Below are positions 2,703-59,599 of a stretch of DNA of 64,000 bases, one piece after another (position 1 is the first letter of the stretch; each line of letters opens with the position of its first letter). A model generated the notes under the pieces. The model worked only from the letters and a program-made list of their open reading frames with translations, searched no databases and was not told the origin of the DNA. Source of the DNA: an uncultured bacterium (GTDB taxonomy: Bacteria > Patescibacteriota > Gracilibacteria > Absconditabacterales > Absconditicoccaceae); NCBI GenBank assembly GCA_947169045.1, contig CAMVOC010000002.1, positions 17,762-81,761 on the forward strand, in the 5' to 3' direction. Position numbers and translations under genes: made by a program.

Positions 2703-4364
2703 ATGCCAACTACAACGCCAACAACACCTATCACCGAAGAGAAGAAAACTGACGAAAAAAAATCAGGTTTTTCTCTAGATATAAAGGCGTTACTAGCCAA
2801 AATAACAGGTAAAAAAGCTGATGCAGACAACGATAAAGGGAAGAACAAAAAACCTCAGCTTTCCTTACAACAAGTAATGACCAAAAAAAATTCCATCATT
2901 GTACAAGTAATTGCAGGAATTACATTTTTGGCAGCAGTAGGATTAGGATATTATACATACAATGAACATAACGAAATCAATGCTCAAGCCGCTAATCTTA
3001 ACCTCCTCAGTAATTTTTGAGACGTCTCTATAAATCAAGCGCAAATAACAGCATTTTGAGATTATATCCAAGACAATATCAGTAGTATTTCGCACCTCCT
3101 AGCAGTAAAAGACGCCGTTGAGGACAAACTTGAACCTTACCAAAAGCTCTTCGAGACACAATCTAGTTACTACAATTTATTTTTAAGAAATATCTATTTA
3201 CCAAGCCTTAATATCCGAAAAGATCCTTATACTCAAATTGTAGATACAAGCATCATCGGACAAAAATATCTAGAAAAAGATAAATTTCAAGACCTCTACC
3301 TCATTCAATACCGAAGTAATTTCTTTAGTAATGTAGGAGAAAACGCTGAATACAACGAAATTTCAGAAATTAATCTAGGGGAAATGGAAGATACCGATCC
3401 AGAACACTTCATCATCCCTGTAACTATCAAGTTTGTCTCACCAAATAAACGTTCTTTCTTACTTTTAGTAAATAAGCTATCCATCACTTCCAATATCACG
3501 AATGTATCTCTTCTCAACGAGTTTTTCTTTTATTTAGTGAAAAATATTGAAGAGCTCAAAGCCGACGAGATAAAAATCGAAAGAGAAAAATACATCGCGA
3601 AATATTTCCCTGACAAAATCAAAGATACAAAAATAACAGAAGAAGAAGAAACAGAAAGCTGATCATGAGAAGACGAGGATACTATCCCAGAGGAAACCAT
3701 CATCGGATATACACTTCGTGAACGAATGGAAGGAACCGGAGAGATTTCACTCCTCGACGCTGAAGTAATTAACGCAACAATTATCCAATCTACAAACTGC
3801 GAAACGTTAGATGCCTTATGTCTCTTTCGTTTTAGAGAAAAATATAGAGAATTGCCTTATCTAGCCTATACCATAGGAATGCCAATGAATCCAGGGCAAG
3901 AAGAAAATAGAGTAACATATTTCAAAGATTTTATCTCTTCTCTTGCTCCAATTATTGCAGTTAAAGCCTTTAATTTCGAGAAAGAAAAAAGTAACAGCAT
4001 TCTCGATACAAACGCACAAACCTACAGAGGATCTATCAGTTTCAACGTGTATGGAAGAAGCGTATCTGACAGTGATAGAGACGAAATCGCCCAAATCCTC
4101 GGAAATGAATGCTTTGGACGTAAAGGACAAGCAGAAAACGCACCAAGTATCAGTACAGAGGAAGCAATTCGTCGTGTAGAAGAAAATCTTATGAAAATCG
4201 GAGATAATCTTCAATCTAGTGATGTTGTTAATAATTTAGAAGAGCTCAAAAAGATTTTCGAGACAATACAAAGAGATTTCGGAAAAATGAATAATTATCA
4301 TAAAGTCATCAAAATCTTTGAAATCCATAGAATGCTCAAAAATGCCAACCTTTGTTACTCATAA
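2703..4364 (+). CDS. Hypothetical membrane-anchored protein (553 aa), possibly a PilO-like assembly component
   Basis: Track ORFs 2703..3020, 3384..3662 and 3726..4364 share one frame, joined by TGA at 3018, 3057, 3660 and 3666. No TAA/TAG in between. Lys-rich N-terminus followed by a TM helix (IIVQVIAGITFLAAVGLGYY). Confidence 0.75.
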
Positions 4365-4806
4365 TCTCACTCCAGAACTCATACAAACGGCAAAGAACTA
4401 TTTCCTTACCCAAGGAAGAAGTGATTTTTTACAAAAGCCACCTCAAAGTATCTGCTCTCGCTATCTCATAGCACAAAAAATAAAAAGCATACCAGAAGAT
4501 AATACTTTCAAACACGGCGATCTTCGATATTCTGCATCCCATTCCGGCAATCTTATTGTCATTGCTTTTGATACCAAAAAAATCGCAATCGACATCGAGA
4601 AAATAAAATCAAAACCGACAGAATATTATCACGAACGAACAGCAAAAGAGGCTCTCATCAAATATCTAAATCTCCCACTAGACGAACACGAAAACATACA
4701 AGTTAATGCATACAAAGGCACAACTTGCACGCTTGAATACAAAAAAGCAACGTTTCAAGCAAAAACATTCGTAAAACAAGGATATGTACGGGCAATTCTC
4801 AACTAA
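4342..4806 (+). CDS. 4'-phosphopantetheinyl transferase-like protein (short, Sfp type)
   Basis: YSASHSGNLIVIAF..KIAIDIEKI and ERTAKEALIKY resemble PPTase motifs (SHSG..A, xIDIE, KEAxxK). ATG 4342 lies inside track ORF 4318..4806 and overlaps the 3' end of the upstream gene. Confidence 0.5.
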   Translation: MPTFVTHNLTPELIQTAKNYFLTQGRSDFLQKPPQSICSRYLIAQKIKSIPEDNTFKHGDLRYSASHSGNLIVIAFDTKKIAIDIEKIKSKPTEYYHERTAKEALIKYLNLPLDEHENIQVNAYKGTTCTLEYKKATFQAKTFVKQGYVRAILN

Positions 4807-4819
4807 TGACTGACGCCAA

Positions 4820-7108
4820 CTACTTCTTTTTCACTCCAATAATCTCTAAAACATCCGCTAATTTCAAATCGCTAGCATCTTTTCAACCTTTTGGAATCTT
4901 ATAATTTTTCTTACCATATTTCACATAAGGTCCATAAGGTCAATTGAGAACCTGAATAGTCTCTTTTTTGTAAGTAAATTCATTAATATGTTTATTTGCT
5001 TCAGCTTTCTTTTTCTCCTCAATAAGCTGAATCGCCTGTTCATACGTAATAGATCGCAAATCAAATTCTGCATCCTTTTTGATGGAAGCAAAAAGATTAT
5101 TCCATTTTACATAAGATCCAAAACGACCCGAATTGGCCTGTACTGGTTTTCCTTCATACTCCCCCAATTCACGAGGCAACGAAAACGCCGACAAGGCATC
5201 CTCTAACGTAATAGTTTCAATATTCAATCCCGCAGGAATATTAGCAAATTTTTTCTCCTGATCATCTGCTGTTCCCATCTGTAACAACGGTCCATATGCC
5301 CCAATCCTTGCAATAATCGGCTTTCCAGTTTTAGGATCGGTTCCAATTTCTCTCTCAGTATTCATTCTCGCAATATCTACCGTCTGTTCTATCAAACCAT
5401 GAAAAGAAGAATAAAAATGCTGAATCATATCTTGCCATTTAAGCTTTCCTTCAGCGACTACATCAAATTCCTCTTCCACATTTGCAGTAAATTTATAATC
5501 CATAATCTCCGGAAAATACTTCACAAGGAAATCCGTGACTGCCATTCAAACATCAGTAGGAAACAGCTTTTTCTTTTCTGCTCCATAATTTTGCTTATGT
5601 TCAGAGGAAATAATATCCCCCTTCATCAAAGTAATTTCTCTAAAAATCCTCTGCTTTCATGGGCGATCCTCCAGTACCACATATCACCTCTTTTGAATAG
5701 TAGAAATAATCGAAACATACGTCGAAGGACGACCAATTCCCTTATTTTCCAACTCTTTTACGAGACTTGCTTCCGTATAACGAGGCTTGTGATTAGAAAA
5801 TTTCTCCGTAGCAACAATCTTATCAGCAAATAAAGATTCTCCAGTCTCCAATTTCGGCAACATACCCTTTGTCAACTCGTCCTCTGGTTCTTCATCGCTA
5901 CTTTCAAAATATAATTTCAAAAATCCATCAAATTTCACCACCTCACCTTCTGCCTTAAACAAACGCTTATCCTCACTCGAAGCTATTTTCACAAGGGTTT
6001 TTTCAATTTCTGCAGGGGACATCTGGCTCGCAACCGTCCTTTTCCAAATCAATTCATACAGTTTTTTTTCATTAGCATCCGTTCACGCACTACGATGCTC
6101 AAAATGTGTCGGTCTAATACATTCATGAGCTTCCTGTGCACCTTTAGATTTTGTCGTATAATGAGTAGGTTTAGAGTATTCTTTCCCGTACTCTTTGATA
6201 ATTTCCTCCTGGGCCGCTTTAATAGCAAAATCAGAGAGATTTACACTATCCGTCCTCATATAGGTAATCAATCCCGCTTCATAGAGTTTTTGAGCAACTT
6301 GCATCGTCCTCGCCACAGGGAAACCTAATTTACGAGAAGCCTCCTGTTGTAAGGTAGAAGTAGTAAAAGGCGCAGAAGGAGACTTTTTACCTGGATTTAC
6401 CTCCAAAGAAGAGACAGAAAAATCTGAATGTTTCAAAGTTTCAAAGAGTTTTTCAACATCTTCTGGCGTTTTAAGTTCCTTTTCCAATGTCGCAGAAAAA
6501 GGTTTTTTAGCAGCTCCAATGAAAGTCCCAACTACTTTAAACGAACTTACTGCTTCATGTTTCTGAATCTCTCTTTCACGATCAACAAGTAAACGCACCG
6601 CAACAGACTGAACACGACCAGCAGAAAGTCAGGTTTTTATCTTTTTCCAAAGTACAGGAGAAAGCTCAAATCCCACCAAACGATCAAGCACACGACGAGC
6701 CTGTTGAGCATCTACCAAATTCATATCTATCGTCCTTGGATTTTCCACCGAATGTTTAATCGCCTTTTCCGTAATTTCATGAAAAACGATTCTCGGAGTA
6801 GTCTTAATATCCAATCCTAATTGATTAGCTACATGCCACCCAATAGCTTCCCCTTCACGATCCTCATCGGTTGCAATCCATACTTTTGCACCTTTAGCAA
6901 GTTTTTTCAAATCAGCAATAACTTTCTTTTTTTCAGGAGAAACCACATATTCAGGGATAAATCCATGTTCAATATCCACTCCCATACCTTTAGTTGGAAG
7001 GTCTACTACATGACCATAAGACGCTTGCACTTCATAATTATTCCCAAGAAACTTTTTAATCGTTTTAGATTTCGCAGGAGACTCTACAATTACAAGATTA
7101 TCCGCCAT
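4820..7108 (-). CDS. topA: DNA topoisomerase I
   Basis: Track ORFs 4940..5545, 5684..6052, 6083..6598 and 6629..7108 share one frame and are separated only by TGA. Motifs: [35 protein letters not shown]. Reading through TGA 4940 adds [19 protein letters not shown] up to TAG at 4820-4822. Confidence 0.95.
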
Positions 7109-9240: not shown

Positions 9241-10143
9241 ATGATTCTCCTCATCACGTGTATTCTTTGACTCATATTCGGATCCTTCGGTTCCGTTATT
9301 TTTTTTAGACTCGGAGATCTCCCTAACCGGAAAGTCCTTAAATCTTTCCTCATTGGACGTTCCGAATGCCAATACTGTCACCATACGCTCCATCGGAAAG
9401 ACCTTTTCCCTATCGTAAGTTTTGCAGTACAGAGAGGAAAATGTCGCTATTGTAAAGGAAAACTTTCTCGACGATATCCCGCTATTGAACTCTGAAGTAT
9501 GCTCATTTTTGTACTTATCCCTCTGATTGCCAACCACGGATCACTAGCAATTCCTACACAGCAACTAGGAATTATCGTTCTTCTTACATTTTCACTCCGA
9601 TTAACGTTTCTCATTGCTCTATATGATTTTTACAGATATGAACTACATTCTACAGCAACCCTACTCTTATTTATACTTTCTTGCTGGTTAAATTATCAAG
9701 TCTCAACTCCTCTTCTCCTACGAATACAAAGCATAGGTCTTTTTTTTGGAATTTTCCTCGCAATTTACTTTGTATCCAAACTCCGAATTTATCTCAAATA
9801 CCACAAAAACTCTGAAGGTTTCGGATTTTGAGATGTGCTATTTACCGGTATCATCGGAAGTTTCTTCCCCGTATTTTTCACCGACCTTGAATCACGAGAT
9901 TGAGCAATCATTTTATGCCTTTTCGTCATCATTTCATGCATTATCGGAATACTTATCTATGCTCTCTCATTTGTCAAGTTTTTCAAGCAACATCTCATCA
10001 AATCACAAAAAAAATCTGACCTTCCCATCACAAAAATAGTAAAAACAACGCCTATTCCATTCATTCCAGCAATGGCTATCAGCTTTTTATTACTTCTCAT
10101 CTGCAGAAATTACCTCTTGACTTTGATGAAATTTTATTTATAA
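9241..10143 (+). CDS. pilD: Prepilin peptidase / N-methyltransferase (A24 family)
   Basis: ATG at 9241. N-terminus GLIFGSFGSVIFFRL. Zn-finger pairs CQYC and CRYC. YPAIEL. Catalytic GFGF-[TGA=G]-DV at 9829-9831. Continues through TGA at 9829 and 9901 to TAA at 10141-10143. Track ORF 9499..9831 is an internal fragment. Confidence 0.9.
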
Positions 10144-26331: not shown

Positions 26332-28242
26332 TTATTTCACCCAAAACCACGTTGTCGCTACTTCATCTTTGGATAAATAATATGATTCACCACTGGTAAA
26401 CCTAAAACTTCCTTCCGTCAACGATCCATTCGTTAACGTAAAATTCACTCTTCCAACGCGTTCACCAGATGCCAAATCATACAGTTCACCATACCAAACG
26501 AAACTATTATCTCCGACATTAAACTGCGTAATAGACAGCTTTTTAATCTGATATCTCGTACCAAACAGTTCAAAATATCCAACTTTAAACGCCGAATTAT
26601 TCAGGGCCAAGACATCTACATACACTTTCGCAACTTTTTGACTAGACCCTTCAGCACTCACCTCTTCCATTGTCTTCACAATTTCATCTGGCAAATGCAC
26701 ATCATTAAGATTAAGGAACATCGTCAACCTCGTTTTGAGACGATAAAAGAAAATCGCCACTTCATACCTAGCAATTGGAGACGAGAAAGTCACGGTATCT
26801 TGCGGAGAAATCAAACTTAAATCAATTGCCTTCTGATAATATTCTACCCATCGTGGAGTCTTGCTCTCATCCAAAGCTCTACCCTCAACTAAACGCACGA
26901 GCATCGCAATAAATTCAGCTTTTGATACCGTCTGACGTGGATTAAATTTTCCATTCGAACCGTTCATCACCCCATAAAGACAAACATTATGAATAGCAGA
27001 AAAAAAAACTGAGCTCTCAGGGACGTCTGAAAACGTACAAGCGCTTTCATTTCTCACCGTCGTAAGGTCTACAGCTTCAGCAAAGGCGGATAACATTTTC
27101 GCCATCTGTTCACGCGTTACCGTCTCAAAAGGCATAAACGCTAGCACCTCATTATAGCTGGTAATACCTTTATCATACATCCACTTCACCGCCTCATGGA
27201 ACTCCGGATCATCCACTAGCGCCTGATTCCCAGCAATCAAACTCAGATCCAGACCCCCATCCCCCAATGCTACCGATCCTGTCTGACAAGTAGCACCTGA
27301 AGAGCAGAGAGCTTCATCAGGATTCTGTTGATCCCAAGTCGTTTGAACCTGCTGAAGCAAAGCATTCAAATCACCTTTTAATTTAGATAATTGCAATTCA
27401 CGATTACTAGATCCATCAGGGTTAATAATCAGATTTTTAAACCTATAAATAAGTAACGCCGTTTGCTCCCTCGTTAATGGCAAATCGATACGTGATAAAT
27501 TAGTATCATTTGTTACTTCCAAATATTTCATCTTCACGTAATATTCAATCCATCGCGGAGTCGACTGTTCATTGGACATCTTACCTTCAAGCATTCTCGT
27601 CAATACAGCCAAGATCTGTCCTTTCGTCAACGTATCATGAGGCATATACGCATGAGTTTTATCATTTCCTCTAAAGATTCCCCACGTACACACCTGAGTA
27701 ATCCAATCTGCAAGCGTAGGATCAAAAAGATCTTCATCCACAAAATGACAATCTAAAGCTGACTCAACCACAGGAAATTGCAATGTTTCAAACAGCTTTC
27801 CAATCAATTTTGCAGCTTCTTCTCTCGTTACATAATCTTTTGGACGATAATCTGCAACCACATCATATTTGGTAAGACCATTCGAATACATCCAATAAAT
27901 TGCTTCTTCCAATTCACTTCCCGTCCCCAGAGACGCTAATGCCGTCCCACGATAGAACGAATCACTAGAAGTCGTCTCAGTAGTAGTATCTAACGTTTCA
28001 AGTCCAGAACCGTCAACAGCAGCATTTTCATCAGAAGCATCTGCATCTCCCTGCTCAGCATCCTGCGAGAAATACTCCCCAACATTTTCCACAAAAATCC
28101 TCTCTTCTCAAGAAAGAATATACACCTGCTTATCAAGCAAATTCACCTGCACTTCATACTCCGCAAATCAAAAAGAACATAAGAAACAAAAAGCTGAAAT
28201 CCCAAGCAAAGAAGCCAAAGAAATCACAGAAGTACGCATCAT
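26332..28242 (-). CDS. Cell-surface protein with four SLH-like domains (636 aa)
   Basis: Signal peptide MMRTSVISLASLLGISAFCFLC. Repeated SLH-like units: AIYWMYSNGLT..YVTREEAAKL, FVDEDL..ADWITQVCTWGIFRGN, AVKWMYDKGIT..TVTREQMAKM, FSDVPESSVFFSAIHNVCLYGVMNG. Beta-rich C-terminus. Confidence 0.8.
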
Positions 28243-28497
28243 GTTATATGATATAAGAGAAAATAAAGAAAGGTTCACCGAATATTTTTTTTATAAATTT
28301 ACAGCTATTTTGCAAGGGGAAGTACCTCTAGAGACTCCATACCATATTTAAGGTTAATTTAAGGTAAAAAAGCTATACTACGATATTCCATCAAGATTTC
28401 CATAATAAAGTCAATATATTTTCCGGATATTCAGCATTCAATATCTTACTTTTACCCTGCATCAAAACAAAAGTCAAGCTTTTCTTCATCTCAGCTC

Positions 28498-28525
28498 TTG
28501 CAAAATAAAGCAGGATTGATATACG
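28498..28525 (+). promoter_or_regulatory. Putative sigma-70 promoter of pilin gene 1
   Basis: TTGCAA (28498-28503), 16 nt spacer, TATACG (28520-28525). The homologous position in copy 2 reads TATATA. Confidence 0.5.
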
Positions 28526-28565
28526 AAGGGTATCTTTTTTTTATTTTATTTATTCTTTTTTCTAC

Positions 28566-29177
28566 ATGAAAAAAACCAACTTTAAGGCTTTCACGCTAGT
28601 AGAAATGCTTATCGTGATCGTCATCATTGGTATCTTGATCGCTGCTTTGCTTCCTAGACTACAAGGAGCACAGGCTATGGCTCGTGATACTGCTAGACAG
28701 ACTGCTCTTACTACTATCGGTACAGCTATCGCTGCTTACAACCTCCAAGTAGGTAACTGGCCTTGGTCAGGAACTCTACAAAGTTCAAACAATGCTGTAG
28801 GAGTTCAAAAGATCTGTGATAAATTAAGAACTCAAGGAATTATCAGTGATTGTCCTATGGATAGAGCTAGAGACTCTATAGTATCAGGTCTTACTAGTAC
28901 TCAGATCACAGGAGGAGACTTTGCATATGTAGTTCTTCCAAAAAATGACAGAGACAACAACGGATTTATCTTGATGGCTGCAACAGAAATGCCAGGTTCT
29001 TCTAACTGGGTAGTATGTGCAGACGGTACAGGAAAAATCAACGCAGGTGATGATATGAAAAACCTTCAACCTTGTAGTGAAGTAACTCTTAATCCAAATG
29101 GTACATGTACTTTCAAAGCTGGAGGAACATGTGTTGCAAAGAGTCAAGCTGAACTTAGATATGTATATCAATATTAG
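28566..29177 (+). CDS. Type IV pilin / pseudopilin, paralog 1 (203 aa)
   Basis: MKKTNFKA-FTLVEMLIVIVIIGILIAALLP is a class III signal peptide, with Glu at +5 and a hydrophobic helix. C-terminal Cys pairs. Confidence 0.92.
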   Translation: MKKTNFKAFTLVEMLIVIVIIGILIAALLPRLQGAQAMARDTARQTALTTIGTAIAAYNLQVGNWPWSGTLQSSNNAVGVQKICDKLRTQGIISDCPMDRARDSIVSGLTSTQITGGDFAYVVLPKNDRDNNGFILMAATEMPGSSNWVVCADGTGKINAGDDMKNLQPCSEVTLNPNGTCTFKAGGTCVAKSQAELRYVYQY

Positions 29178-29202
29178 TTCAACGTGTTAACTCATCCAAA
29201 AA

Positions 29203-29238
29203 AGAGCTATCCCAAAGCTAAGGGATCGCTCTTTTTTT
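29203..29238 (+). terminator. Rho-independent terminator after pilin 1
   Basis: Stem AGAGCTATCCC / GGGATCGCTCT followed by a T-run. Confidence 0.75.
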
Positions 29239-29427
29239 ACACAAAAAAATAAGAAATAAAAAATCATTACAAAATTTAAGGTTAATTTAAGGTACAAAGA
29301 GTACACTAAGAAATTCACATCAAAATTATTCTAAAATAAAGTCAATATACTTGCAAAATAATCAATATTCAACGTTATACGTTTATTCCATATCGAGATA
29401 AAGTCAATTTTTTTTTCATGTCATCTC

Positions 29428-29455
29428 TTGCAAAATAAAGCGAAACTTTTATATA
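29428..29455 (+). promoter_or_regulatory. Putative sigma-70 promoter of pilin gene 2
   Basis: TTGCAA (29428-29433), 16 nt spacer, TATATA (29450-29455). A T9 tract (29408-29416) lies just upstream. Confidence 0.55.
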
Positions 29456-29493
29456 GGAAGTATCCTTTTTATTTTATTTATTCTTTTTTCTAC

Positions 29494-30111
29494 ATGAAAA
29501 AAACCAACTTTAAGGCTTTCACGCTAGTAGAAATGCTTATCGTGATCGTCATCATTGGTATCTTGATCGCTGCTTTGCTTCCTAGACTACAAGGAGCACA
29601 GGCTATGGCTCGTGATACTGCTAGACAGACTGCTCTTACTACTATCGGTACAGCTATCGCTGCTTACAACCTCCAAGTAGGTAACTGGCCTTGGTCAGGA
29701 TCTTTGGACACTACTAACGGTAACGCATCTACAGGAGTTCAAAAGATCTGTGATAAATTAAGAACTCAAGGAATTATCAGTGACTGTCCTGTAGATAGAG
29801 CTAGAGATTCTGTAGTATCAGGTCTTGCTGAAACAGTTATTACTGGAGGAGATTTTGCATACGTAGTACTTGCAAAGAACGACAGGAAAAACAATGGATT
29901 TATGCTTATGGCTGCGACAGAAATGCCAGGTTCTTCTAACTGGGTAGTATGTCCTGAAGGTGGAGGTGTAGTAGCTAAAAACGCTGACATGAAAGACCTT
30001 CAACCTTGTAGTGAAGTACAACTAATACCAGGTGATACATGTAGTTTTAAAACTGGAGGAACATGTGTTGCAAGCAGTCAATCACAACTTAGATATGTTT
30101 ATCAATACTAG
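29494..30111 (+). CDS. Type IV pilin / pseudopilin, paralog 2 (205 aa)
   Basis: True start is MKKTNFKAFTLVEML at ATG 29494, inside track ORF 29428..30111. The first 69 residues are identical to paralog 1. Confidence 0.92.
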   Translation: MKKTNFKAFTLVEMLIVIVIIGILIAALLPRLQGAQAMARDTARQTALTTIGTAIAAYNLQVGNWPWSGSLDTTNGNASTGVQKICDKLRTQGIISDCPVDRARDSVVSGLAETVITGGDFAYVVLAKNDRKNNGFMLMAATEMPGSSNWVVCPEGGGVVAKNADMKDLQPCSEVQLIPGDTCSFKTGGTCVASSQSQLRYVYQY

Positions 30112-30133
30112 TTCAACAGGTTACTTACTTACC

Positions 30134-30162
30134 AAAAACTCCCCTCTCGGGGAGTTTTTTTA
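30134..30162 (+). terminator. Rho-independent terminator after pilin 2
   Basis: AAAAACTCCCC-TCTC-GGGGAGTTTTTTT. Confidence 0.85.
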
Positions 30163-30236
30163 ATCAATAAACCAATTGAAAAAACACAGCAATTCTCTAC
30201 AATACCCAACAGTTTTATCTATCACATCGACACATT

Positions 30237-32135
30237 ATGAAAAAATCGCTTATGCAATTTATTTGCTTCTTCATACTACTCACCGGAGCATTACGATTTT
30301 TACAATCCACCTCCACCCATCAGCAAACCGATACTGAAGGTCAAACGATAGAAGAAATTGCCAAAGAAGAAGATACAAGCCTCAGTAAACGATTATCTCT
30401 CTATCAGATGGGGAAATTCGAAAAAGTAGTCATAGAAAACGGAGTCGATCTCAAAGGATTTCAATTTATCACGACAGGGATAAGTCAGAATTTTTTCTCT
30501 CTTAACCAAGAATCTCGTCACTACAACCTCATCACCGCAAAAAAACCCGTAGACACCACTATTTCTGAACTTGGAATCTCGTTAACAGGAAACACCATCG
30601 TCTCTGCAGAATACGTAGAAAAAGGCTTACTAAGGAGCTTTATAGAAAATTTCTGAGGAATTATCCTTTTACTCCTCCTACTCACCTTCGGAATGAAATT
30701 CATGATGGGACGCGGAAATGGTGCAGGGGGGCTCCTCAATATCAAAGTAGGGAAAAAGCCGACAAAAGACACCAAAAAAACCAAATTCACAGACATTGCA
30801 GGAATGGAAGAAGTCAAACAAGAACTTATGGAAGTTGTGGATTACCTCAAAAACCCAGACAAATACAAAAAAGTCGGAGCTAGACATCCAAAAGGAGTAC
30901 TTCTCTATGGAGAACCAGGTTCTGGAAAGACCTTACTCGCCCGTGCTGTAGCTGGAGAATCTGAAGTGCTATTTTTGAATGTTTCTGGATCAGAATTTAT
31001 GGAAATGCTCGTAGGAATGGGAGCTGCAAAAGTGAGAACCCTTTTCAAACAAGCAAAAGACGCAGGGAAAGCCATCATTTTCATCGACGAAATCGATGCC
31101 ATTGGACGTAAAAGAGGGGCAGGACATAACGGAGCAAACCAAGAACAAGAACAAACACTCAACCAGATTTTGACGGAAATGGATGGATTTGATAACGATA
31201 CCAATATTATCGTTATGGCCGCGACCAACAGACCAGACATTCTCGACCCTGCACTCCTCAGAGCAGGAAGATTTGACAGAAAAATCTACGTAACCACACC
31301 AACTGCAGAGGAAAGAACTGCAATCTTTGAATACTACCTCAAAGGAAAGAAAATCTCTCCAAAAGTAAAAATCGAATCATTAACCAAAAGAACAAGCGGA
31401 TTAGTAGGTGCCGACATCGAAAACATCGTCAACGAAGCCAGCCTCAAAATCGCAAAAGACGGACGCGAAATCCTAGAAGTAGAAGATTTTGAATACGCAC
31501 TCGAGAAAGTCATTATGGGACCAGAAAAAAAAGTAAAAGGAATCCAAGAAAAAGAAAAAAAGCTGACAGCCTTTCACGAACTCGGACACGCATTATTGGC
31601 TCATCTTCAAGACGAAGCCGACCCTGTAGAGAAAATTTCTATCGTCAGAAGAGGACACGCCCTCGGAGTAACACGAACTACTCCAACCGAAGACAAAAAC
31701 CTCTATTCAAAGCAATATTTACTCTCCGAACTTTCCGTAATGCTTGCAGGACGTGCTGCTGAAGAAATATTTTTCGGACCTGAAGAAATTACCACCGGAG
31801 CAGCAAACGATTTCGAAAGAGCAACACAAACTGTTAGAAATATCCTCACCAAATTTGGAATGGATGAAGAACTTGGAATGGTCGTTTACAAAGAGGATCC
31901 TGATTTCCCTCTCCTAAAACCGTACAGTGAAGAAACCGCTCAAAAAATTGATAGAAAAATCAAAGAATATCTCGATAATGCCTACCAAATTTCCAAAAAA
32001 ACTATCACAAAGCATAAAAAGCTGATTGAAAAAATTGCAGCCATCCTCGTCGAAAAAGAATTTATTACCGGAGAAGAATTTGCTGAAATAGTTAATACGT
32101 TCGTTGTTGAAAACGAAGCAAAAAAATCTGATTAA
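30237..32135 (+). CDS. ftsH: ATP-dependent zinc metalloprotease FtsH
   Basis: Track ORFs 30237..30656 and 30693..32135 share one frame, joined by TGA at 30654. Walker A GEPGSGKT. IIFIDEIDA. SRH. HELGHAL zinc motif. Confidence 0.96.
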
Positions 32136-58030: not shown

Positions 58031-59599
58031 CTAAGGATGACTTTTTACGAACTGCCAATATCCTCGAATTCCTAACCCCACAAAAATTACCACCAAAAGA
58101 TACTGTTCAAACTGTCATTGAGCAACAATGGAGATAGACCACTGATTTCCTACGTTTGCAAACCAAAAAATGAGCGACATTAAAAGTTTTACAGGAACAA
58201 AAACAAAAGAAAAAGCTGAAAACAACAACGAAACAGCACCCATTACCGTAATAATTGGCACCAACGGAACAATGAAAAAATTTAAAAGAATGCCTACCAA
58301 ATTTACTCAATTCATAAAAAAGAGTAAAACAGGCGCCGTTCCTAAACTAGCTCAAAGAGTCGCCAATACCGTCGTCCTAATTCCTTCCCAAAAATGAGAA
58401 TCAGCTTTTTTCTTTTTTTGTCCAAGAGAAGTACGAGAGTCAGCTTTCAATCTCCTCTTTTCATCCCGTTTTCCAACTAACACAATTCCAATAATAGCAC
58501 CAAAACTGAGTAATAAGCCAACATCATACACTAAAGCGAAAGGGTTAAGAAAAAGCAATCCTATCAACGAATATCTCATCAAACGCCAAATGGAAATTTC
58601 TCTTCCTCGAAATAGTGCCATCAACGTCAATCCTCCCATAATCGCAGCTCTCACAACACTAGAATCCCCACCACAAAGCAAAGCATACAGCGAAATCATG
58701 ACAATAATCAAGCCATTTCTAATCTTTACCGGCACCCACATCAACAAAAAATTAAGCAAAACGACCACCATCGCAATATTTCCCCCACTAACAGCAATAA
58801 TATGTACCGTCCCACTCGCCACAAAAGAATCATAAAGTTCAGGAGGTAATAAGGATTTATCCCCTATCAAAAGTCATAACAAAAGCCCAGCATATGCCGT
58901 ACTACCATACACTGACTCCACAAAGCTCTGTAATTTTGCACGCAAAGAATCAATCCATCCTAACGTAAAATTCACGCTTGTTTTCCCCATCATAGTAGCT
59001 CTTCCTCCTTCACGCGTTACCAATAAACTATTTTTCTCATACAAAGATCCATCTATGCGCTTCATAAATAACCATTTATCATAATTGAACTGATATTGCC
59101 AAAATTCTGGCTTCCATATCCTCATTTCTCCAAGTCCAAAAACTTTTTCATCATTTCTTTCAGAAACCGAAGCAGACAAAAAAAGCTGATCTCCCAAATG
59201 ATGTGCTTGATTTGACGTGAGTCTCCAAATCTTCCCTTGCTCATCTTGTACCAGATACGTTTGCCATTTTTGTGTATCTACCACCTGCACAAATCCGTTA
59301 AAGGATTTCCATTTTGCAAGGTCTGCTCACATTTCTTGCTGTTGCACCTGATGACCTCCACGCATCCAAACATGAACCTGCACAACACCAAAAGCCAAAA
59401 AAACGCTCAAAGTAACCAGCAAAATCGTTCTAAAGCATCCCCTTACCAAAGAAAAATTTCAACGATATGAAATAAAAAATCTAACCAAAACAATAACACT
59501 CAAAAGCACAATCAAACCACAAGAAATCAAAAGGCTAACCTTCCGATCAAGCCACATCGTATTTACAGCAATTGAGAGCAAAAAAGCCAAAAATCACAT
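58031..59599 (-). CDS. comEC: DNA internalisation competence protein ComEC/Rec2 (no beta-lactamase domain)
   Basis: Track ORFs 58874..59290, 58352..58870 and 58115..58300 share one frame (gaps checked). GTVHIIAVSGGNIAMV is the competence-domain motif. Polytopic. The second codon is TGA. TAG at 58031-58033. Confidence 0.85.

Follow-up and report, generated by a model that had tools for sequence, protein, structure and literature searches.

A tandem pair of putative type IV pilin genes with identical 5' parts and diverged heads in an Absconditabacteria-type bacterium

The window analysed here, a stretch of 64,000 nucleotides (nt) from a metagenomic contig (CAMVOC010000002.1, positions 17,762 to 81,761, GenBank assembly GCA_947169045.1), contains two pilin genes, A1 (28566-29177, plus strand) and A2 (29494-30111, plus strand), whose start codons lie 928 bp apart. 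The two genes are identical at their 5' ends and diverged at their 3' ends, and in all probability they represent functional, separately transcribed genes for putative major pilins, which arose by tandem duplication and whose 5' tract is homogenised by recurrent gene conversion. An earlier reading of the window, made from the sequence alone, had already proposed ongoing gene conversion of the 5' half. That proposal is now supported by three kinds of evidence: a contrast between species and paralogs at synonymous sites, variants that are shared by both copies within a strain, and contigs assembled at a k-mer length of 141 (k=141) that close into loops.

An exact 5' repeat between diverged genes

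The repeat comprises 235 nt, located at 28538-28772 in the first copy and at 29466-29700 in the second (both on the plus strand), and includes the 28 nt that precede the ATG together with codons 1-69. The sequence-only reading had described the 5' untranslated region and these 69 codons as identical; the match is indeed exact and slightly longer than first noted, starting at 28538 rather than at 28541. Its boundaries, at 28538 and 28772, are sharp. Upstream, the segments 28329-28537 and 29257-29465 are 72.8% identical, with insertions and deletions. Downstream, the 3' halves of the genes, which encode the globular heads (28773-29177 in A1 and 29701-30111 in A2, plus strand), show 79.8% nucleotide identity, and past the stop codons the sequences are unrelated (39%). 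Within the 5' part there are no differences at 51 synonymous sites, versus a proportion of synonymous differences (pS) of 0.33 in the 3' part (P ~1.6e-9). For the 3' halves, the synonymous (dS) and nonsynonymous (dN) divergences are 0.43 and 0.19, giving an omega (dN/dS) of 0.44. The comparison indicates that the identity of the tract exceeds what purifying selection on the protein would produce.

Comparison with other species of the genus separates protein constraint from homogenisation. Over 38 codons of the N-terminal helix, species differ from one another at 14-29 of 114 nt (12-25%), and all of these differences are synonymous, with no amino-acid change. Over the same 38 codons, A1 and A2 differ at none of the 114 nt. 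Likewise, the two pilin paralogs of a relative, candidate division SR1 bacterium MS502-49, show no differences from each other in the 38 codons, yet are ~25% removed from the A1/A2 tract. Because the species differ synonymously and the paralogs do not, the synonymous sites are free to change, and the paralogs are kept alike within each lineage. Thus, at synonymous sites paralogs are closer to each other than orthologs are, and the similarity ends at sharp boundaries. At the protein level, the first 58 pilin residues are near-identical across three species, and the N-terminal helix is invariant in all strain alleles considered below.

The MS502-49 paralogs, which come from a different project's assembly, share an exact tract of 131 nt. 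Elsewhere in the family the picture is mixed. The tandem pilin pairs of two genomes (G016 and G017) show no homogenisation and that of a third (G030) shows partial homogenisation, ~97% over the first 100 nt, and it follows from these sequences that homogenisation is lineage-specific within the family. The closer relatives have one pilin copy or copies in other arrangements, making the A1/A2 pair itself species-specific.

Strain alleles and the possibility of an assembly artefact

The strain evidence is drawn from public assemblies, in which 21 contigs from at least 19 samples carry A1 or A2 alleles. Five long contigs have the same gene order as the window, namely a gene for an SLH-domain protein, A1, A2 and ftsH, and their flanks are 99.2-99.8% identical to it. 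Nucleotide diversity (pi), 0.004-0.005 in the flanks, rises to 0.015 across the 3' half of A1 and to 0.032 across that of A2, or 3-9 times that of the flanks; the A2 3' half, with 25 segregating sites and two allele classes, is the most polymorphic segment of the locus. The tract itself occurs as seven haplotypes among A1- and A2-type alleles, which differ only synonymously. An eighth haplotype, found in contig L045, includes one amino-acid change (N64K).

Identical pairs within a contig are of three kinds (H0/H0, H1/H1 and H3/H3), and four contigs carry the same haplotype on both paralogs. In the window and in L058 neither copy of the tract has a variant. In L043, whose flanks fall within the 99.2-99.8% range, the synonymous change 28659 C>T is present in both copies, and in L056 both copies carry 28697G/28712C/28715A (H3/H3). 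Furthermore, in one k=141 contig (L047) the variant 28628C is phased to both copies. Two megahit contigs assembled at k=141 are closed loops, in which the prefix equals the suffix with a period of 928 nt. Because such a loop closes only if all interior k-mers are shared, the A1 and A2 tracts must be identical in those samples, and the loop haplotypes differ from that of the window; the contig with the phased 28628C is one of these loops. New variants therefore appear in both copies within a lineage, with the caveat that in long scaffolds the repeat may have been collapsed. On this sequence evidence, the homogenised pairs are real, the homogenised haplotype differs between strains, and in some strains homogenisation is at present lacking. 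It is because different strains hold different homogenised pairs, and some hold none, that the conversion is read as recurrent.

The 3' halves of the genes had been described as mosaic, with conserved blocks alternating with variable ones. The conserved protein blocks GVQKICDKLRTQGIISDCP, MAATEMPGSSNWVVC and LQPCSEV are found in both A1 and A2, and all six cysteines are kept in both proteins. (In one A1 allele, P0126, at 3001-3612 of contig L049, Cys151 is replaced by Gly, either a real variant or a sequencing error.) When only the window is considered, the case for mosaicism is not significant: the nucleotide-identical blocks of the 3' halves, such as GVQKICDKLRTQGIIS, are short and explicable by purifying selection. 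The mosaic becomes convincing only with the strain alleles, some of which resemble the other paralog in patches. In one A2 allele class, recovered by two assemblers in four contigs, 11 of the 16 variable sites in a segment at about residues 174-185 are A1-like, and one A1 allele (contig L044) carries the loop 152-166 of that same A2 class. In addition, a third allele, P0003 (206 amino acids; L045, ERZ27297831 k141_1147825), has a 3' half that is 74-76% identical to A1 and A2. It is the sole pilin gene between the SLH gene and ftsH in a contig whose flanks are 97-99.5% identical, and upstream of it A1-type sequence gives way to A2-type sequence precisely at the TTGCAAAATAAAGC box (-35).

Several observations weigh against recurrent conversion and mosaicism, and most of them bear on the alternative that the pattern is an assembly artefact, in which non-identical 5' regions or strain variants were collapsed; on that view neither the exact identity nor the shared haplotypes nor the seemingly recombinant contigs would reflect biology. 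The source of the window is a metagenome, and the assembler may have reduced the 235-nt repeat to one consensus; a tract of this length exceeds the usual k-mers, and SPAdes-type scaffolds reuse one repeat edge. In the megahit contigs L051 and L057, which span both genes in near-identical strains, the tracts differ at 5 synonymous sites. Other contigs have unusual topologies: in L052 and L059 the A1 upstream region is joined to the A2 head and the A1 gene is missing, and L048 has the reciprocal junction. Such topologies are also expected from an assembler that mis-traverses a tandem cycle. Unequal recombination and mis-traversal would account for them equally well, and they are consequently not counted as evidence. 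As for the mosaic, the A1 allele with the A2 loop block is known from a single short contig (L044), and each identical block in the 3' halves of the window holds only ~10 synonymous sites (a rough P of ~0.02 before multiple testing).

However, the closed loops were found in two samples other than that of the window and need identical tracts, and the phasing of 28628C to both copies lies within one k=141 contig. Even five differences in the tract would fall far short of the divergence of the 3' half (P = 1.3e-4). Furthermore, the 131-nt exact tract of MS502-49 was obtained for a second species in a separate project, and the contrast between species and paralogs is independent of whether the identity is exact. 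An artefact is therefore considered unlikely as the source of the pattern.

The pilins, their expression and their machinery

A1 encodes a prepilin of 203 amino acids and A2 one of 205, and the two proteins are 83% identical. Both match PF07963 (N_methyl), scoring 30.6 and 30.5 bits where the cut-off is 21.2, and TIGR02532 is matched with 25.3 bits, against 16.3. The leader, MKKTNFKA/FTLVEM (the slash marks the processing site), is short and basic and is followed by Phe at +1 and Glu at +5. Its last residue (-1) is Ala in place of the usual Gly; the Ala is kept across the genus, whereas Gly is found in the family's other genera. AlphaFold gives a confident model of A1, based on 112 homologues, which has a predicted local distance difference test (pLDDT) score of 91.9 and shows a helix at residues 11-62 and a head with a five-stranded beta-sheet. 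The best fold matches in the PDB are all type IV pilins, but weak ones (E 2e-3; template modelling score, TM, ~0.5), among them TcpA, CofA and other type IVb pilins, the gonococcal pilin, Thermus PilA4 and C. difficile PilA1. Motif matches, protein alignment (for A2) and predicted fold all indicate that A1 and A2 are type IV pilins with a class III signal peptide. Two other families were considered and rejected, as their matches are limited to the N-terminal helix and stay below the cut-offs: ComGC (NF040999; 43 bits, cut-off 75) and the pseudopilin GspG (TIGR01710; 44.2 bits, cut-off 88.85). A1 and A2 are the only major-pilin-type genes in the genome. Their codon bias, their strong terminators of their own and the fact that they belong to the largest homologue family in the relatives suggest that they encode major rather than minor subunits.

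The positions at which A1 and A2 differ are clustered, at residues 70-78, 110-113, 152-162, 174-185 and 192-196. Residues 70-78 form a low-confidence loop directly past the helix, with a two-residue indel, and residues 152-162 form a long loop between strands; conservation is seen in the two long strands and in the helix at 80-89. Computed in windows along the genes, dN/dS is ~1 in the loops and 0.07-0.27 in the sheet. The sequence-only reading had placed the variable blocks on the exposed surface of the pilin. The AlphaFold model agrees to the extent that most changes lie in three predicted loops, but the excess of variable residues in loops falls short of significance (odds ratio 2.1, p = 0.11), so that surface exposure is weakly supported and this point, too, counts against the proposal.

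Each gene appears to form a transcription unit of its own, as had been suggested. Both open reading frames are complete, and both are followed by an intrinsic terminator, at 29198-29237 (plus strand) for A1, where a hairpin of -20.4 kcal/mol (z -5.3) precedes a U-run, and at 30134-30159 (plus strand) for A2, where a hairpin of -18.6 kcal/mol (z -4.9) does so. The two terminators are non-homologous. The promoters are proposed from boxes that are conserved in the genus. For A1 (28473-28525, plus strand), these are GTCAAG (28473-28478), a -35 box TTGCAA (28498-28503), a spacer of 16 nt and a -10 box TATACG (28520-28525). For A2 (29403-29455, plus strand), they are GTCAAT (29403-29408), a T9 run, TTGCAA (29428-29433), again a 16-nt spacer, and TATATA (29450-29455). 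In five other species of the genus, TTGCAA or TTGTAA is found 61-72 nt before the pilin ATG, and the GTCAA element is kept. A generic sigma-70 scan did not list the boxes of A1 and A2, and for this reason the promoters are regarded as putative.

Farther upstream, ~200 nt from each gene, lies the doublet TTTAAGGTTAATTTAAGGTA (28347-28366 for A1, where it is followed by TATACT, and 29275-29294 for A2, both on the plus strand). Its two exact copies in the window compare with 0.02 expected, and it is possibly a distal promoter or a regulator site. Its conservation does not extend to pilin upstream regions in other species. The genome has four sites similar to this doublet (TTTAAGG-N4-TTTAAGG), of which two, on contigs C4 (~89093, minus strand) and C5 (~39786, minus strand), are not associated with pilin genes. 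Both of these directly precede a TATAMT box. One has a membrane-protein gene 20 nt downstream; the other is followed by a short hairpin and a T-run, with no open reading frame, and could specify a small RNA. The leaders (28526-28565 and 29456-29493) are T-rich and have no Shine-Dalgarno-like sequence near the ATG. A structured regulatory 5' leader was considered and rejected, given an RNA structure z of +0.17.

The codon usage of the pair is also distinctive. TGA, which appears to encode glycine in this organism (see below), accounts for 20% of glycine codons genome-wide and for 0 of 37 in A1 and A2, which use only GGA and GGT. This avoidance suggests that A1 and A2 are highly expressed. Homologues in related genomes contain up to 16 TGA glycine codons, and highly expressed genes of this strain may in general avoid the reassigned codon.

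The window also encodes a PilD prepilin peptidase (9241-10143, plus strand; PF06750 and PF01478) and the DNA-uptake channel ComEC (58031-59599, minus strand; PF03772, E 2.6e-45). Both had been named in the sequence-only reading, and both are confirmed by Pfam when TGA is read as Gly. Elsewhere in the genome there are two full-length and two PilT-like ATPase matches to PF00437, two loci with PF00482 (PilC), and a gene for RecA. The PilB and PilC genes fall into two clusters, on contigs C3 and C5, each with its own minor pilins. Given two clusters, the possibility arises that A1 and A2 divide the labour, each serving one of two type IV pilus (T4P) machineries. There is a precedent in the saccharibacterium TM7x, which has two T4P systems with separate major pilins (10.1101/2024.11.25.624915). 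However, neither A1 nor A2 lies in a machinery cluster, and the identical leader and the identity of the whole assembly helix argue for one shared machinery. Moreover, the paralogs are 83% identical and specific to this species, and its closer relatives manage with one copy or another arrangement. A division of labour thus seems improbable.

The two pilin genes sit between the gene for the SLH-domain protein (26332-28278, minus strand) on the A1 side and ftsH (30237-32135) on the A2 side; the genes around the locus encode a tRNA synthetase, the SLH protein and FtsH. The genome assembly to which the window belongs amounts to 873 kb in 13 contigs. There are 83 frames of at least 150 codons when TGA is read as sense, versus 44 under the standard code; in one relative TGA encodes the invariant Gly of the pilin motif IIGIL; and the relatives, including MS502-49, carry the label candidate division SR1. 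From these features it is concluded that the organism is an Absconditabacteria-type bacterium that uses code 25 (TGA = glycine). In many database homologues of the pilins, a W occupies the position of an expected glycine (AQWRARD, WWSNW), where TGA has evidently been translated as Trp. This mistranslation distorts alignments of the family.

Gene conversion, its parallels and its meaning

Taken together, these results have led to the following model. Tandem duplication of a unit of ~0.9 kb, consisting of promoter and gene, would have given A1 and A2. Homologous recombination, presumably RecA-dependent, non-reciprocal gene conversion, would then repeatedly overwrite the tract of ~235 nt, which extends from just past the predicted start of transcription to codon 69. 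This segment encodes the leader peptide, the site of PilD cleavage and the long helix at the N-terminus from which the core of the filament is built, and its homogenisation would keep both pilins interchangeable for one processing and assembly machinery. The heads, in turn, would diverge mostly in loops, and shorter patches of conversion, together with the replacement of alleles between strains, would reshuffle them further. Both genes would be expressed from their own putative promoters, and the two pilins may either co-assemble or be used alternatively. A benefit might lie in host binding, phage evasion or DNA uptake, and variation in the head loops would plausibly affect recognition by hosts or phages; receptor switching, antigenic variation and pilus-dependent DNA uptake had been named as candidates in the sequence-only reading.

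The arrangement in MS502-49 deserves a description of its own. Its contig (L033, BNUE01000012.1) has a full pilin gene at 3819-4499 (minus strand) and an inverted, 5'-truncated copy at 5973-6644 (plus strand). The second copy has no promoter, start codon, leader or first 17 codons, and the 131-nt exact repeat, which is inverted, begins at codon 18; the heads differ greatly. If the repeats recombined, the promoter and the first 17 codons would pass to the other head, and the expressed head would thereby switch. Between the repeats, the only features seen are remnants of an S51 peptidase gene and of an AbiEii toxin gene, with no recombinase. A truncated copy in another genome (G005) was considered as a cassette donor and rejected, since it shares no exact tract with the full-length pilin gene there and is ~85% identical to it even where the 5' conservation is strongest. 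In that genome (contig C2; L042, ~4380-5228), a pilin head that has no FTLVE N-terminus is joined in frame to a small membrane-protein open reading frame ahead of it, which may encode a DUF805-type protein.

The MS502-49 arrangement raises the question of whether pilin variation is programmed and frequent in this group, through cassettes as in Neisseria, through inversion as in Moraxella, or through deletion and re-duplication. The inverted repeat of MS502-49 would be suited to such a switch, and mosaic alleles do occur. In addition, a single gene occupies the space between the same flanks in contigs L045, L052 and L059, and L048 has the reciprocal junction. However, the single-copy contigs may be assembly artefacts, and in the window both genes have a start codon, a terminator and a putative promoter. 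With only two pilin copies, the genome contains no promoterless, 5'-truncated silent pilin cassette. No guanine-quadruplex (G4) motif is present, nor any C4 pattern, in 27900-30300, and the T9, T8, T6 and T5 runs show no variation in length among the strain contigs that cover them. The copies are direct repeats, and no invertase or recombinase was found among the genes that flank the locus or the other scanned open reading frames of the window. A programmed switch is not supported in the window, and there is little reason to expect one. Least probable of all is the reading in which one recent partial duplication, or a conversion that happened once, had no further exchange after it and only purifying selection has acted on the helix since: the helix is under extreme constraint at the protein level, but synonymous sites vary between species and strains yet co-vary between paralogs, at least three homogenised haplotype pairs at ~99.5% flank identity would require several events within a very short time, and a second species of the genus, and in part another family, acquired the pattern independently.

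Recurrent conversion between two pilin genes has parallels elsewhere. In Streptococcus sanguinis, the pilin genes are adjacent and two pilins co-assemble into one filament. Strains of this species have several major T4P pilins (PilA1, PilA2 and PilA3, also PilE1 and PilE2), and PilA1 equals PilA3 over residues 1-53, which resembles A1 and A2 in that there are several major pilins per strain with an identical N-terminal helix and diverged globular parts (PMC11121087). The S. sanguinis genes form part of the pil operon, unlike A1 and A2, which are separate units at a distance from the machinery loci; furthermore, the organism that carries A1 and A2 is an SR1 bacterium with TGA as Gly, and here concerted evolution at the nucleotide level is shown across strains. 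In Neisseria, RecA-type non-reciprocal transfer from promoterless silent pilS cassettes into pilE involves a G4 element, occurs at high frequency and yields a conserved 5' part and a mosaic 3' part. Transfer between pilin paralogs, the conserved 5' and mosaic 3' parts and the presence of RecA are common to both cases. The window, however, has neither silent cassettes nor G4, and it is the 5' part that is homogenised between two complete genes. In Moraxella bovis and M. lacunata (tfpQ/tfpI), an inversion by the Piv invertase exchanges two heads that share a 5' coding segment, which serves as the recombination site. A similar geometry is seen in MS502-49, with its inverted and 5'-truncated second copy, whereas the copies in the window are direct and complete; no Piv-like invertase was found.

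In Legionella pneumophila, the related major pilins PilA1 and PilA2 are encoded at one locus and are reported to have different roles in piliation; the part of the source that is available makes no claim of nucleotide-level homogenisation at the 5' end or of mosaicism among strains. Among candidate phyla radiation (CPR) episymbionts, T4P are considered to mediate attachment to the host in TM7x (10.1101/2024.11.25.624915) and in Vampirococcus lugosii (PMC8080830), and together with ComEC they have been proposed to take up DNA. The two systems of TM7x have distinct major pilins, and neither study describes a tandem pair with identical 5' ends. A search of the literature on pilin hypervariability in Patescibacteria gave nothing relevant, and for Absconditabacteria no description of gene conversion between pilin paralogs was found. 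The phenomenon is a known one, as paralogous pilins with a shared helix and pilin gene conversion are textbook matter, and it is the lineage, Absconditabacteria, that is new.

A broader conjecture, for which the odds are long but somewhat better than for any of the alternatives above, is that the homogenised 5' tract serves, in this SR1 genus at large, as a handle by which recombination exchanges pilin heads. If so, direct repeats, as in the window, would lead to expansion and contraction of the array and to chimeric heads. Inverted repeats, as in MS502-49, would flip the promoter and the first 17 codons with no need for a dedicated invertase, and conserved flanks together with uptake through ComEC and T4P would capture foreign heads, of which the head in L045 (~25% divergent) would be an example. 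This would amount to a system of pilin variation in an uncultured episymbiont lineage, possibly one that tracks host or phage specificity.

It should be noted that repeats of this type break or collapse in short-read metagenome assemblies, which is a technical warning. At the same time, otherwise near-identical strains vary most at the pilin locus, which can be used as a strain marker. T4P are the best candidates for the means by which CPR episymbionts locate their hosts, hold on to them and feed on them, and almost nothing is known of them in Absconditabacteria. The locus separates the fixed part of the SR1 pilin, that is, the leader and the core helix, from the parts left free, namely three or four head loops. 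The variable loops thus offer concrete regions in which questions of host or phage specificity can be asked.

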